Assembly: GCF_000027125.1 (NCBI RefSeq)
Contig: NC_017626.1
DNA length: 64,000 nucleotides
Direction: 5' to 3' (one strand)
Source of the DNA: Escherichia coli 042
Lineage (GTDB): Bacteria; Pseudomonadota; Gammaproteobacteria; Enterobacterales; Enterobacteriaceae
Shown here: piece by piece, positions 1 through 14,649 of the stretch
Position numbering within the stretch: position 1 is the first letter of the stretch
Layout of the letters: each line of letters begins with the position of its first letter
Notes under the pieces: model-generated
The model's database searches: none
Seen by the model: the letters and a program-made list of their open reading frames with translations, nothing else
What the model was told of the DNA's origin: nothing
Made by a program: the position numbers and the translations under genes

Positions 1-2
1 AT

Positions 3-617
3 GAACATGTTATAAAAGAAAATATCCACAACACGGTCCAGTCACCGACAGAAAAAGACATTTCAAAAATAAACAGCTCTGATAAACCTTATAAAACCAG
101 CAGTGAGGAAAGTATTAAAAGTCAACTTTACAGCGATCAAAAAAAATATACAGACCTGCTACTACATTCTGAGAAAAATACAGAATGGTACAAATACGCA
201 TCCTCCGTGGAACGCTATGATAAATTCAAGAATTCTTCTAAGGAAATTAAAAATACCTACAAGCAAATTGTACAAGCGCAGAAAAAATTGAACCAAATGA
301 AATACATAAATAAATTAAGTGGTGAGCTTATCGATATCGCCGACAAAAAGTTAGCACCATTAATAAATGATAGTTTCAGCTATACACGAGATTTCTTTGC
401 TTACTCAAAACAGGAAAATAACATCTTCACGTTTGATAATTCTAAGTTTGAAGATCCAAAGGAAAAAAAAGGTTTAATGGTACAACACAGCAATGGACAA
501 CTGGTTATTACTGGTGAATATTGTCCTGAAGGTGTGCAAACAGCATTCACTCAAGACCAATATGATAAATTAATAAGATACATTAATATTTTCTTTACTT
601 TTCCGAAATGCGAATAA
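3..617 (+). CDS. hypothetical protein, 5'-partial (frame open from the window start); strongly AT-rich
   Basis: Frame 3 has no stop from position 3 to the TAA at 615-617 in very AT-rich DNA, where chance stops are frequent. The listed ORF 207..617 begins at an internal GTG. No motif recognised. Confidence 0.45.
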   Translation, partial: EHVIKENIHNTVQSPTEKDISKINSSDKPYKTSSEESIKSQLYSDQKKYTDLLLHSEKNTEWYKYASSVERYDKFKNSSKEIKNTYKQIVQAQKKLNQMKYINKLSGELIDIADKKLAPLINDSFSYTRDFFAYSKQENNIFTFDNSKFEDPKEKKGLMVQHSNGQLVITGEYCPEGVQTAFTQDQYDKLIRYINIFFTFPKCE

Positions 618-799
618 TACTTTACAGTATAAACTGCAATACAATTTATTATTGAACCCAATTCATACTATTTAAGGAATAACAATGCCCAGTGTTAGCT
701 TTCTTAACGAATGAGTTTTACGCAAATATGTTGGCATCTTTTTTAACAGGATGCACCGGTTAATGAATAGAACAACCGGGAGTAACATTATTTCTCTTT

Positions 800-830
800 A
801 GCAGAGGATGGCGCATGAACGCCATCCTGC
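800..830 (-). terminator. putative hairpin terminator downstream of glpQ
   Basis: Inverted repeat AGGATGGCG / CGCCATCCT just 3' of the glpQ stop on the minus strand; the U-tract is weak. Confidence 0.35.
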
Positions 831-837
831 AATAGCA

Positions 838-1914
838 TTACTCTTTATTAAGGAATTTTACTGCCTTATCAGGGAAATCAGTAAACAGCCCATTTACACC
901 CGCTTTGTTATACAGAGCATCATATAACTGATTCACATCAGTAGTGTATTCAGGCAGTTTATCTGACCGCACGGTATAAGGATGCACTACCAGCTTGTTC
1001 TGCTGAGCATCTTGCACCATGCCAGTGAGTTTGATATTACCCGGCTGCGATGTCTCCTCAATCAACATATGGTAATCCGGACCAATACCATCTGCATATT
1101 CCGCCACCTGTTTCATGGCTCCCGGCTTAAACATCCAGTCGTAGTTGTAATTAACCCAGCTTCCGTCCGGCTGTTTCTGCTGAGTTTCGTTCCAGTCGGT
1201 ATAGGCAATCAGCTGTACCAGATTGAGGTCCATGCCCATTTTAGGTTCCAGCTCATTCTTAATACGCTTCAGTTCATCGGCATCAAAACATTGCAAATAA
1301 ACTTTGTCGTCCTTACCGGTGTAACCATATTTCTTCAGCACTTCCAGCGTTTTTGCCGCAATATCCTTCCCTTCCTGATGATGGAACCACGGCGCTTTAA
1401 TTTCTGGATAGATACCGATATTTTTCCCGGTAGAGTGATTTAACCCCTGAACAAATTCAATCTCTTCTTCGAAAGTGTGTACCCGGAAGTCAGATTTACC
1501 CATCGGGAAACGGCCCGGATAAGTCTGTACTTTCTTACCGTTTTCAATATCGAAACCTTCGGTAAATTTCAGTGACTTAATTTCATCGAGCGTGAAATCT
1601 ATCGCGTAGTAACGACCGTCTTTGCGCGCCCGATCCGGGAAACGATCGGCAACATCAGTAACACGATCGAGATAATGGTCATGCAGGACAACCAGATGGT
1701 CGTCTTTGGTCATCACCAAATCTTGTTCCAGATAATCCGCTCCCTGCGCATACGCCATCGCTTTTGCTGGCAGCGTATGCTCCGGCAAATATCCACTGGC
1801 ACCGCGATGGGCGATGACTATTTTTTCGTTGTTATCCGCCGCCATTGCACCGCTTCCCATGACCATAGTGCTCATCATGATCGCCATGCTAAGGTTTTTC
1901 AGCGTCAATTTCAT
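838..1914 (-). CDS. glpQ: periplasmic glycerophosphodiester phosphodiesterase
   Basis: ORF 838..1971 matches GlpQ; start taken at MKLTLKNLSMAIMM (signal peptide), giving 358 aa. Confidence 0.93.
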   Translation of the reverse strand: MKLTLKNLSMAIMMSTMVMGSGAMAADNNEKIVIAHRGASGYLPEHTLPAKAMAYAQGADYLEQDLVMTKDDHLVVLHDHYLDRVTDVADRFPDRARKDGRYYAIDFTLDEIKSLKFTEGFDIENGKKVQTYPGRFPMGKSDFRVHTFEEEIEFVQGLNHSTGKNIGIYPEIKAPWFHHQEGKDIAAKTLEVLKKYGYTGKDDKVYLQCFDADELKRIKNELEPKMGMDLNLVQLIAYTDWNETQQKQPDGSWVNYNYDWMFKPGAMKQVAEYADGIGPDYHMLIEETSQPGNIKLTGMVQDAQQNKLVVHPYTVRSDKLPEYTTDVNQLYDALYNKAGVNGLFTDFPDKAVKFLNKE

Positions 1915-7806: not shown

Positions 7807-8766
7807 ATGACCGAATCAACAACCTCCTCCCCGCATGATGCGGTGTTTAAAACCTTTATGTTCACACCCGAAACCGCTCGGGATTTTCTGGAAATACATC
7901 TACCAGAGCCGCTGCGCAAGCTTTGCAACCTGCAAACTTTACGCCTGGAACCCACCAGCTTTATTGAAAAAAGTTTACGCGCTTACTACTCGGATGTTTT
8001 GTGGTCTGTGGAAACCAGCGACGGTGAAGGCTATATCTACTGCGTGATTGAACATCAAAGCTCTGCAGAAAAGAATATGGCTTTTCGGCTAATGCGCTAT
8101 GCCACTGCCGCCATGCAGCGTCACCTGGATAAAGGCTATGACAGAGTTCCGCTGGTGGTGCCATTGCTGTTTTATCATGGCGAAACCTCGCCCTACCCGT
8201 ACTCACTCAACTGGCTGGATGAGTTTGACGATCCGCAACTTGCCCGGCAGTTGTACACCGAAGCTTTTCCGTTGGTGGATATCACCATCGTACCTGACGA
8301 TGAGATCATGCAACATCGGCGTATAGCTCTGCTGGAACTGATTCAAAAGCATATTCGCGACCGCGATTTAATCGGTATGGTCGACAGGATCACCACGCTT
8401 TTGGTTAGAGGCTTCACTAATGACAGCCAGCTACAAACGCTGTTTAATTATCTGCTGCAATGCGGCGATACCTCCCGTTTCACCCGCTTTATTCAGGAGA
8501 TTGCCGAACGTTCACCACTACAAAAGGAGAGATTAATGACTATTGCTGAACGGCTGCGGCAGGAAGGACATCAAATTGGCTGGCAGGAAGGTAAAATTGA
8601 AGGTTGGCAGGAGGGGAAATTGGAGGGGTTGCAGAAAGGCAAAGTAGAAGGTATGCATGAACAAGCCATTAAAATTGCCTTGCGCATGCTGGAACAGGGC
8701 TTTGAACGTGAGATTGTGCTGGCGACAACCCAACTCACTGATGCTGATATTCCGAACGGTCATTAA
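7807..8766 (+). CDS. yfaD: Rpn-family recombination-promoting nuclease (PD-(D/E)XK, transposase_31-like)
   Basis: 319-aa ORF with the conserved N-terminal HDAVFK motif and a repetitive EGK-rich C-terminal module. Confidence 0.85.
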
Positions 8767-11107: not shown

Positions 11108-12316
11108 TCAGGCTGTCGCCTGAATCATTTCGGTGGGTTCCTGCTTCAACGAGCGGCCTGACTGCACCATCTCTCCACAGGCAAGAACGGCGTGCCCCGC
11201 CGCTAAAATGTTACGAGCGCCATTTACATCGGCGTTCGCTGTATATCCACATACCTGGCATCTGAATTGACTTTGTGACAGGCGATTTTCTTTCGCAGTA
11301 TGACCACAGCACGCGCAACGCTGGCTTGTGTACGCTGGCGGAACAGCAAGCAACTGACCGCCACTCCAGAGCTGCTTGTACTCAAGCTGGCGGCGCATTT
11401 CATACCAGCCCTGATCCAGTATCGAACGGTTTAAACCTGATTTTGCCCGGACATTGCGCCCCGGCTGGCTGAGCGTACCCGCTGCTGACTTTGACATGTT
11501 GCTGACCTTCAAATCCTCAATGACTATCATTGCGTGGTTTTTGCTGACGGTCGTTGTGACTTTGTGAAGGTAGTCCCTGCGGATATTTGCGATACGGGAA
11601 TGCAGTCGCTGTATTTTGCGTTTCTGCTTCTGCCAGTTGTTGCTGAATTTGACCCTGCGGCTTAACTGTCGCTGAAGTCTCGCCAGCTTCTTCTGGTTTT
11701 TCTGAAAACTGTTTACAGGCTCAAAGACTGTGCCATCTGACAGCGTGGCGAGTTTAGCCACGCCAGCATCCAGCCCGACCATTGATGCTGAAGGGTGAAC
11801 CGGAGTTGATACTTCACTTTCTGTCTGAATACTGATGTACCACTTACCGCAGGACTGGCTGACAGTGACATTTTTTACAACACCCGTGACCTGACGGCTG
11901 TTCCGGTAGCGCATCCAGCCCAGTTTCGGCAGAAAAATACGGCTGTTTTCCTGATCGAGCTTAACGCCCTGCGGATAGCGGAATGCATCATTCTGTCCCC
12001 GCTTTTTGAATCGGGGAAAAGCAGCCCGATTCTGGAAGAAGTTTTTGTAAGCCCGCTCAAGGTCTTTCAGTGACTGTTGCAATGGCTGTGAGGGCGAATC
12101 TTTAAGCCATTGCGTTTCAGTGGCGTTTTTCCACTCAACCAGCCAGGAAGCCATTTTCCCGTAAGGGATGTATTTATTACCGGCCTCATGATTCTCATTC
12201 TGAAGCGCCAGAGCGCGATTGAAAACGAAACGACATGCGCCTGCGAAGCGCCTCATTTCACACTCCTGTTGACCACCTGGTCTTAACTGGAATTTAAATG
12301 CCTGTAATCGTTTCAC
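11108..12316 (-). CDS. tnpB: TnpB (OrfB) RuvC-like RNA-guided nuclease of the IS200/IS605 family
   Basis: 402 aa with RuvC-I GLDAGV, RuvC-II IVIEDL, Ruv[12 protein letters not shown] and a zinc finger CACCGH...CQVCG. Confidence 0.9.
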
Positions 12317-12323
12317 AGGTCAA

Positions 12324-12929
12324 ATGATACTTTGGTCTATGAAAAAAGAAACCGATATCCGGCGTGGAAGGCATTGTGTTTTCCTGATGCATGTTCACCT
12401 GGTCTTTGTCACCAAATACCGACGCCAGATTTTTGACCATGACGCGACAGAAAAACTACGCACTTACTTTTCAAATGTATGTGCTGATTTTGAAGCTGAA
12501 CTGGTTGAAATGGATGGCGAACCAGATCACGTCCATTTGTTAATTAACTATCCTCCCAAACTGGCGATATCCAGTCTGGTAAACAGCCTCAAAGGCGTAT
12601 CGGGTAGGTTACTGCGACGAGATCGACCAGATATTGCAGTCAGGTATTACTACAAAGGCGTTTTGTGGAGTCCTGGCTATTTTGCCAGTAGCTGCGGAGG
12701 TGCGCCAATATCCGTCATCCGCCAATACATTGAACAACAGCAAACACCTGGTCAGGTGGAAAACCGCGCCTTATATCCCCGCCCTGAAGGACGGGGTTTT
12801 ACAGCGCACTGGATAAAGTCATGGACTCAACAACCTCAATCCAGCCATGCTCACTGGCGATGTCCTGGCCGTTTAACCAACGGCGCAGCATATTCAGTGC
12901 CATCATTGCGCACACTTCCTGACGGATAG
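12324..12929 (+). CDS. tnpA: IS200-type Y1 (HUH) transposase TnpA; annotated ORF is abnormally long at the 3' end
   Basis: HUH motif HVHLL and the C-terminal WSPGYFASSCGGAPISVIRQYIEQ motif. The ORF reads past the terminal hairpin into the yfaY-antisense flank (201 aa against a typical 140-155 aa). Confidence 0.75.
   Translation: MILWSMKKETDIRRGRHCVFLMHVHLVFVTKYRRQIFDHDATEKLRTYFSNVCADFEAELVEMDGEPDHVHLLINYPPKLAISSLVNSLKGVSGRLLRRDRPDIAVRYYYKGVLWSPGYFASSCGGAPISVIRQYIEQQQTPGQVENRALYPRPEGRGFTAHWIKSWTQQPQSSHAHWRCPGRLTNGAAYSVPSLRTLPDG
12777..12796 (+). repeat. IS terminal imperfect palindrome (tnpA-proximal end)
   Basis: CCCCG-CCCTGAAGGA-CGGGG, sharing the GCCCTGAAG loop with the hairpin at 11073-11094. 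Confidence 0.55.
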
Positions 12930-14106: not shown

Positions 14107-14649
14107 TCAGAAACTGGCGTTAACCCCAACATACGGGCCGTCAGCCACGGCGTTGTCGCGGTTACCGTCTTTACCAGAAAGGTTCAGGTAGCGATAGCCC
14201 GCCTCAATACTCACTGGACGCATAATGGTGTAACGCGCGCCCGCATTCGCTTCCTCATAACTTTTAATACCGCTGGAGAGCGAATCCGGAGAGTAGTAAT
14301 ACTCGCCAAACAAACGGAAGCTGTTGCCAATTTTCCACTGCAAACCACCTCCTACCGCTGCGGCATAACCTTCATCGCCGTAATTCGGGTTGGTGTAAAC
14401 GCCTTTTCCGCCAACGGTCGCCATTAACGGCCCGAGAGGCAGATTCAACCCCAGCCCCACGCCCGCGACGTCACCGTCGTCGTCGTTATGTGTCCAGTTA
14501 CCGCTTAACGCCAGGCCCGTCGATTCAGTCCCAAAACCGACACCAATATTGGTGTATTCTTTACCCGCCTGACCGCTGATGCTCATTGCATTGACCGATG
14601 CAGAAACCAACAGCATTCCGGCCAGACCTGCTAGCGCAATTTTTTTCAT
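14107..14649 (-). CDS. yfaZ: outer-membrane beta-barrel protein YfaZ
   Basis: Start taken at MKKIALAGLAGMLLVSASVNA (signal peptide), 180 aa, C-terminal Phe. Confidence 0.85.
   Translation of the reverse strand: MKKIALAGLAGMLLVSASVNAMSISGQAGKEYTNIGVGFGTESTGLALSGNWTHNDDDGDVAGVGLGLNLPLGPLMATVGGKGVYTNPNYGDEGYAAAVGGGLQWKIGNSFRLFGEYYYSPDSLSSGIKSYEEANAGARYTIMRPVSIEAGYRYLNLSGKDGNRDNAVADGPYVGVNASF

Follow-up and report, generated by a model that had tools for sequence, protein, structure and literature searches.

An old AT-rich insertion beside glpQ carries an orphan gene of Escherichia coli that is probably near-neutral cargo

The DNA analysed here is a 64,000-nucleotide stretch of Escherichia coli 042 (contig NC_017626.1; hereafter the window), which opens with the greater part of an AT-rich open reading frame (ORF) located next to glpQ and referred to below as the orphan gene. 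We consider it likely that this is a real gene which came with an old insertion of AT-rich foreign DNA devoid of its own mobility machinery, and which is at present an orphan found only in E. coli and carried as near-neutral cargo. According to this reading, foreign DNA would have been inserted long ago between the gene of a LysR-type regulator and glpQ, and the orphan gene would by now experience purifying selection weakly or not at all, and be lost piecemeal. Its base composition and population pattern would also fit silencing by H-NS-like proteins and a function that is probably dispensable.

The stop-free frame spans positions 3–614 of the window (204 codons, plus strand) and is closed by a TAA codon at 615–617. 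The GC content, calculated per 200 nt, is 0.30–0.33 over positions 1–800 and 0.42–0.60 in glpQ and glpT; for the whole gene with its flanks it is 0.26–0.38, compared with 0.42–0.60 in the neighbouring genes, which makes the base composition deviant. An earlier note on this DNA had described an open frame at 3–617 with roughly 30% GC, unlike the flanking genes and cut by the window start, and all of this proved correct: the frame is free of stops at a GC content of 0.30–0.33, and the window holds the last 60% of the gene. Over the 15,837 bp that it shares with the window, the genome of E. coli 118UI (locus L001) matches at 100% identity, and can therefore be used as a legitimate upstream extension of the window (window position equals L001 position minus 15,000). 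In L001 the frame continues upstream to an ATG at 14547, 456 nt before window position 3, with none of the upstream stops that the earlier note had allowed for. The complete orphan gene thus comprises 1,071 bp and 356 codons, and is preceded by a good Shine-Dalgarno sequence, AAGGA, located 7 nt before the ATG and kept in all three aligned alleles. With the base composition of the gene itself, a stop is expected at 7.7% of codons, and the probability of 356 open codons arising by chance in such DNA (33% GC) is about 5e-13; for the 204 codons inside the window it is about 8e-8 at the same per-codon value. The five alternative frames of the gene contain from 16 to 42 stops. The orphan ORF is real and not a chance open frame. 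The features of the region, in window coordinates, are as follows.

1–617, plus strand: the part of the orphan gene inside the window; open frame, extended through L001; without a family or domain, and without homologs beyond E. coli
139–146, plus strand: A8 homopolymer inside the orphan gene; recurrent frameshift site, where a –1 change yields a truncated allele of 208 aa (P0016, L012)
174–178, plus strand: A5 run inside the orphan gene; place of the compensating +1 of the O157-type allele, 35 nt past the A8 deletion
618–805, no strand: 3′ arm of the insertion (1,715 bp), non-coding, bounded by the comparison of L001 with the empty sites of MS6192 and E. albertii
806–837 (stem 806–813/820–827), no strand: ancestral hairpin just past the glpQ stop codon, likely the glpQ terminator
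838–1914, minus strand: glpQ (glycerophosphodiester phosphodiesterase), core gene flanking the insertion; dN/dS (ratio of nonsynonymous to synonymous substitution rates) 0.01–0.13

The orphan gene is the one credible gene of an accessory segment of 1,715 bp (L001 14091–15805), which is situated between the stop codon of the LysR gene and the glpQ terminator hairpin. Its bounds were obtained by comparing the locus with that of other E. coli genomes, as the earlier note had proposed. The empty site of MS6192 reads …TGATGTGAGACA/GGATGGCGCATGAACGCCATCC…, and the filled site of 118UI reads …TGATGTAAGACA/TGAGATTG … TTTAGCAGA/GGATGGCGCATGAACGCCATCC…, where the slash marks a junction. The right end of the segment is window position 805, the junction at 805/806 having an ambiguity of 1 nt, and K-12-type genomes align to the window by megablast only from this junction onward. 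The parts of the segment that the window lacks are limited to 456 nt of orphan coding sequence and the 456 nt of segment DNA upstream of it. The E. albertii junction (TGAAGTGCGACA/GGATGGCG…CGCCATCC) is the same empty site as that of E. coli (TGATGTGAGACA/GGATGGCG). Moreover, E. albertii, Salmonella and Citrobacter share the order nrdAB-yfaE-MFS-LysR-glpQ-glpT-glpA with the LysR gene directly beside glpQ; the LysR orthologs score 90% in E. albertii, 81% in Salmonella enterica and 77% in Citrobacter. With LysR beside glpQ in the outgroups and the empty junction found in E. albertii as well, the AT-rich segment of 1.7 kb is a true insertion, derived within the E. coli lineage. The pair of MFS and LysR genes, which the outgroup gene order keeps next to glpQ, is for this reason ancestral and external to the insertion, and the yfaH of K-12 is a deletion remnant. 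A repeat search found no terminal inverted or direct repeats and no target duplication in the segment, only one ambiguous base, and no integrase, transposase or tRNA is present within the 1,715 bp. The segment thus lacks the hallmarks of a mobile element or genomic island (integrase or transposase, tRNA or attachment site, repeats, duplication).

To describe the distribution of the segment, window positions 1–837 were compared by megablast with 5,426 complete E. coli genomes. Matches were present in 1,242 genomes, and query coverage reached at least 80% in 1,046 of them; the number of carriers was put at 1,045 of 5,426 (about 19%). The copies are always chromosomal, essentially one per genome, and in every lineage fetched the segment occupies the glpQ site, including strain TW10509, which we take to belong to cryptic clade I. 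Carriers are common among strains negative for the enterocyte effacement locus (LEE), such as urine, avian and environmental isolates. The synonymous divergence (dS) among orphan alleles is 0.04–0.14, within the range of the flanking genes glpQ (0.02–0.16) and inaA (0.01–0.10), and the insertion is therefore likely to be old and to have diverged together with the chromosome; together with the constant locus across lineages, this indicates that it is not recent. All four combinations of the orphan gene and the LysR/MFS pair exist in E. coli: both are present in the window strain and O157, MFS and LysR without the orphan in MS6192, a LysR remnant with the orphan in L006, L007, L008, L014, M505 and APEC O78, and a LysR remnant (yfaH′) without the orphan in K-12. 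The orphan and the pair are therefore unlinked. That the segment stands at 19% and combines freely with the deletion next to it suggests that filled and empty alleles recombine. Among the claims of the earlier note, those of strain-specific accessory DNA and of a foreign look were borne out by the variable presence of the segment, which is not a conserved core gene, and by the polarity of the insertion, and its statement on K-12 was accurate (inaA-yfaH′-glpQ, no orphan). The idea of the tail of a horizontally acquired island was not supported: the insertion is derived, but it is complete at 1,715 bp and belongs to no larger island, given that it has one credible gene and that the MFS and LysR genes are ancestral.

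Diversity is unevenly spread along the segment. The central block of the protein, amino acids 151–210 (window 1–176 corresponds to codons 153–210), is hypervariable, with a nucleotide diversity (pi) of 0.137 versus 0.02–0.06 elsewhere, and consists of two deep haplotypes with differences at nonsynonymous sites and, strongly, at synonymous ones too, which suggests an old recombinational mosaic and not merely relaxed constraint. Over the segment as a whole, variation is highest in the 3′ arm (618–805; pi 0.068). The least variable part is the 310 bp before the orphan ATG (L001 14237–14546), where pi is 0.015–0.018 versus 0.053–0.068; this could reflect either regulatory constraint or the structure of recombination blocks. 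The 310-bp stretch, which takes in a 43-codon ORF annotated in some genomes, has no coding signature and no Rfam match. A search of the DNA segment against Rfam at a permissive E-value returned no RNA family, and a scan for promoter and terminator consensus sequences gave fewer matches than in shuffled sequence. Further decay of the locus was seen in A1_136 (L016), whose LysR gene contains an internal stop, and CX12 (L019) has an IS630-like element between the LysR remnant and the upstream arm of the orphan.

The searches for relatives of the orphan protein led only to E. coli. A word-indexed search of 5.8 billion proteins gave matches from E. coli alone, all at least 83% identical, and HMMER, run exhaustively over 1.84 billion cluster representatives, gave fragments of the gene itself, a noisy read and one weak match to cadherin repeats, the best one that was not the gene itself. 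The noisy read, P0036, was rejected as a separate relative, since it is apparently an error-ridden read of the orphan gene. The cadherin-repeat match, P0035 (1,001 aa; E-value 1.7e-7 over six repeats), was likewise rejected as a homolog: the hhalign probability is 6.8%, the match covers about one third of a cadherin-type domain, and the E-value is inflated by the six repeats. A peptide-pattern scan of one genome per species in 100,044 species found a single locus, L011 (JAIJJM010000334.1, 'MAG: Collinsella sp. isolate Map_57_008', 3,474 bp), a contig that matches the LysR-orphan-glpQ region of E. coli at 100% identity; this contig of a metagenome-assembled genome that serves as a GTDB species representative is evidently E. 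coli contamination. No match was found in a phage collection, and the sole match in a plasmid collection was a chromosome-like record. This PLSDB entry, NZ_CP141089.1 (4,938,057 bp), is as large as an E. coli chromosome, includes the chromosomal locus on the glpQ side, and is probably a chromosome wrongly listed among plasmids. In family databases, NCBIfam gave 0 families for the 356-aa protein, PADLOC 0 families at E ≤ 1 and PHROGs 0 matches; the best Pfam match was Val_tRNA-synt_C with an i-Evalue of 0.2, which was taken as noise, and the best E-value in a sequence search of the PDB was 0.3. The earlier note, written from the sequence alone, had likewise recognised no motif. Judged by these searches, the gene appears to be a taxonomically restricted gene (ORFan) confined to E. 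coli. It is already catalogued, though uncharacterised, under names that in all sources contain 'hypothetical' or 'uncharacterised'.

RefSeq, through the Prokaryotic Genome Annotation Pipeline (PGAP), tags the window-type allele as 'hypothetical protein, frameshifted', and the alleles so tagged have 356 open codons. Only two types, that of O157:H7 (WP_001301786.1) and that of NCTC10444, are annotated as intact. In both, the A8 run has lost 1 nt and the A5 run has gained 1 nt, a compensated –1/+1 pair which swaps KYTDLLLHSEK for NIQTCYYILRK. A patch of the type KKY(T/A/I)DLL(L/Q)HSEK is common to the divergent alleles of 118UI, E105, APEC O78, CX12, A1_136, L014 and P0005–P0007, and the window-type frame is therefore ancestral. 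By this comparison of alleles, the reference used by PGAP, WP_001301786.1, is the derived and compensated form, and the 'frameshifted' flag is an artefact of the O157 reference, with the frame of the window allele undisrupted. Loci tagged in this way in RefSeq are L001, L003, L016, L017 and L019, and a systematic mis-annotation probably affects many RefSeq genomes that carry the gene.

The substitution pattern of the gene is close to neutral. By the Nei-Gojobori method, dN/dS is 0.35–0.72 for the orphan, compared with 0.01–0.17 for glpQ and inaA. At a transition/transversion weight of 3, which is close to the observed spectrum, pairwise whole-gene values are 0.55–1.1, and no domain is clearly constrained. 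Diversity across the three codon positions is flat (0.059/0.042/0.058). In a set of eight alleles, picked by DNA similarity alone and regardless of ORF length, 49 nonsynonymous and 21 synonymous changes were counted against a neutral ratio of 2.60:1, which corresponds to an omega of about 0.9 (P = 0.69). Inactivated copies are frequent: of 42 carrier genomes sampled at even spacing, 10 have the insertion sequence IS1 within the gene (L005 is an example of such a copy), and P0095, an N-terminal fragment, occurs on about 1,000 contigs. TW10509 shows a +1 change within a run of T, possibly a sequencing error of the 454 era. The idea of phase variation at the A8 run was rejected, as the truncated P0016 is present on 3 contigs versus at least 1,000 for each of three intact alleles.

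Several observations weigh against our reading of the gene as foreign, near-neutral cargo. Nonsense changes are absent from the eight-allele set, where 2.7 would be expected among 70 mutations (P = 0.064), and from a larger set that adds two alleles picked for their full length, where 4.6 would be expected among 108 inferred mutations (P = 0.009). All eight alleles that were sampled by DNA and are free of insertion sequences have the frame open. This amounts to a modest case for selection that keeps the frame open, for which the best single hint is the O157/NCTC10444 pair itself: a –1 change followed by a +1 change 35 nt on would be unlikely without selection for a full-length product. The horizontal origin, in turn, is drawn from sequence: base composition, the polarity of the insertion and the lack of homologs.

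The alternative that withstands these data best is that of a dead relic, a gene that was functional in the donor and is now unexpressed or without function, its frame still open because of the short time elapsed. This view is close to a 'pseudogene' call by PGAP, and we regard it as possible but doubtful. It departs from the near-neutral cargo that we prefer only on the question of a product that is still being made and put to use. An omega indistinguishable from 1, the flat diversity across codon positions, the absence of the segment from about 80% of genomes and the frequent knock-outs by IS1 or frameshift would all agree with a relic, and with 2.7 nonsense changes expected in 70 mutations, the open frame is not very surprising. 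However, the 'frameshifted' tag is itself an artefact of the compensated O157 reference, the O157 compensation together with zero nonsense alleles argues for some selection on length, and the Shine-Dalgarno sequence has been retained in the three aligned alleles.

The protein encoded by the orphan gene would have a mass of 41 kDa, an isoelectric point of 6.3 and a grand average of hydropathy of –0.67, with K, S, I, E and N as abundant residues. At 0.86, its highest 19-residue hydropathy speaks against a membrane helix, and the N-terminus shows no evident hydrophobic stretch resembling a signal. The earlier note had proposed profile searches and structure prediction with the full protein. The former gave no family, as described above, and AlphaFold2 on an alignment of 9 sequences gave a mean predicted local distance difference test (pLDDT) score of 45.6 for the whole protein; modelled separately, the N-terminal 165 aa reached 46.2. 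Both models are too poor for fold inference, and only the outline of secondary structure is usable: predicted helices at 22–100, three strands and a helix at 111–160 (the best-predicted part, pLDDT of about 73–75), a disordered linker, long helices at 181–290, and a beta-hairpin with a helix at 310–350. Foldseek with the low-confidence model against the PDB found only noise from the DnaK substrate-binding domain (E ≥ 0.046, TM score ≤ 0.2). An internal duplication was rejected: the two halves have a similar predicted layout, but the best BLASTP match between them, although colinear, has an E-value of 3.1, which is not significant.

A gene of the type III effector kind is a very unlikely explanation. 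What speaks for it is composition and the role of the neighbour in virulence, where the first 25 residues give a hint from composition that is a heuristic and not a test. The protein has no homology to known effectors or to families of Pfam, NCBIfam or the protein databases; the location is neither a prophage nor an exchangeable effector locus; LEE-negative strains commonly carry the gene; the orphan is unlinked to the LysR/MFS pair; and near-neutral substitution with frequent IS1 knock-outs is not what this reading calls for. Least credible of all is a single-gene anti-phage defence or toxin, the suggestion of the earlier note, which has in its favour that accessory, AT-rich and variably present genes are often defence-related, but which fails on the lack of PADLOC, Pfam, NCBIfam and PHROG matches, of any enzymatic or nucleotide-binding domain, of mobile-element features, and of a partner gene or the two tightly coupled small genes of a toxin–antitoxin system, as well as on its neighbours (inaA, MFS, LysR, glpQ and glpT are metabolic or regulatory core genes and form no defence island) and on a diversity unlike that of an arms race, with omega at about 0.9 throughout.

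The local gene order in the window strain is nrdAB-yfaE-inaA-MFS transporter-LysR regulator-orphan-glpQ-glpT-glpABC, and the orphan ORF and glpQ are convergent. When 610–845 is folded, the hairpin between them forms the strongest stem; it is also present in insertion-free genomes and in E. albertii. It is likely the terminator of glpQ and probably stops the convergent orphan transcript as well. Upstream of the orphan, a 43-codon ORF (WP_259394523.1 in some annotations) ends 179 nt before the ATG. It is 43, 62 or 81 codons long among alleles, has matches only in E. coli and shows very few substitutions; it was rejected as a gene, as its length varies and it has no codon-position signature. Between yfaE and the MFS gene, inaA is present in E. 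coli and was not called in L020, L021 and L022 (E. albertii, Salmonella and Citrobacter), and may be another lineage-specific difference at this junction. Farther along the window there are two features related to transposition: rpnE (yfaD), labelled 'ISNCY family transposase', at 7807–8766, and an element of the IS200/IS605 family with a full TnpB/InsQ gene and a truncated tnpA at 11108–12749 (L001 26108–27749), between yfaV and yfaY, the latter read from the annotation of the identical strain 118UI.

Among known systems, one resemblance is that to cadherin-repeat proteins. Amino acids 103–139 of the orphan (37 residues, YTLTF...GILSVESKEGFIS) resemble the repeated motif 'TYSL...GLFSIDSKTGVIS' of P0035, but the low hhalign probability and the partial domain coverage given above set the two apart. 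The Nle (non-LEE-encoded type III) effectors of enterohaemorrhagic and enteropathogenic E. coli share with the orphan a low GC content, a narrow taxonomic range, the absence of a Sec signal and an N-terminus that is polar and has no acidic residues; unlike them, the orphan has no sequence similarity to effectors, no prophage or effector-locus context, and many LEE-negative carriers.

The closest neighbour in the literal sense is O island 97 (OI-97; 2,006 bp). The orphan is immediately adjacent to it and equally absent from K-12, and both look O157-specific when O157 is compared with K-12. Unlike the genes of OI-97, however, the orphan is not included in that island: the MFS and LysR genes of OI-97 are ancestral enterobacterial genes deleted in K-12, whereas the orphan segment is a true insertion, and the two indels segregate independently. 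In the published OI-97 deletion the primer ends just past the LysR stop, and the OI-97 mutant therefore retained the orphan. A further likeness is to the E. coli ORFans or taxonomically restricted genes, reportedly characterised by Daubin and Ochman in Genome Research in 2004. Like these, the orphan is AT-rich and patchy, has an elevated Ka/Ks and a label without function, and lacks a homolog outside the species; unlike a typical ORFan, it is much longer (356 codons), lies outside a prophage, and has an insertion site and polarity that can be given with base precision.
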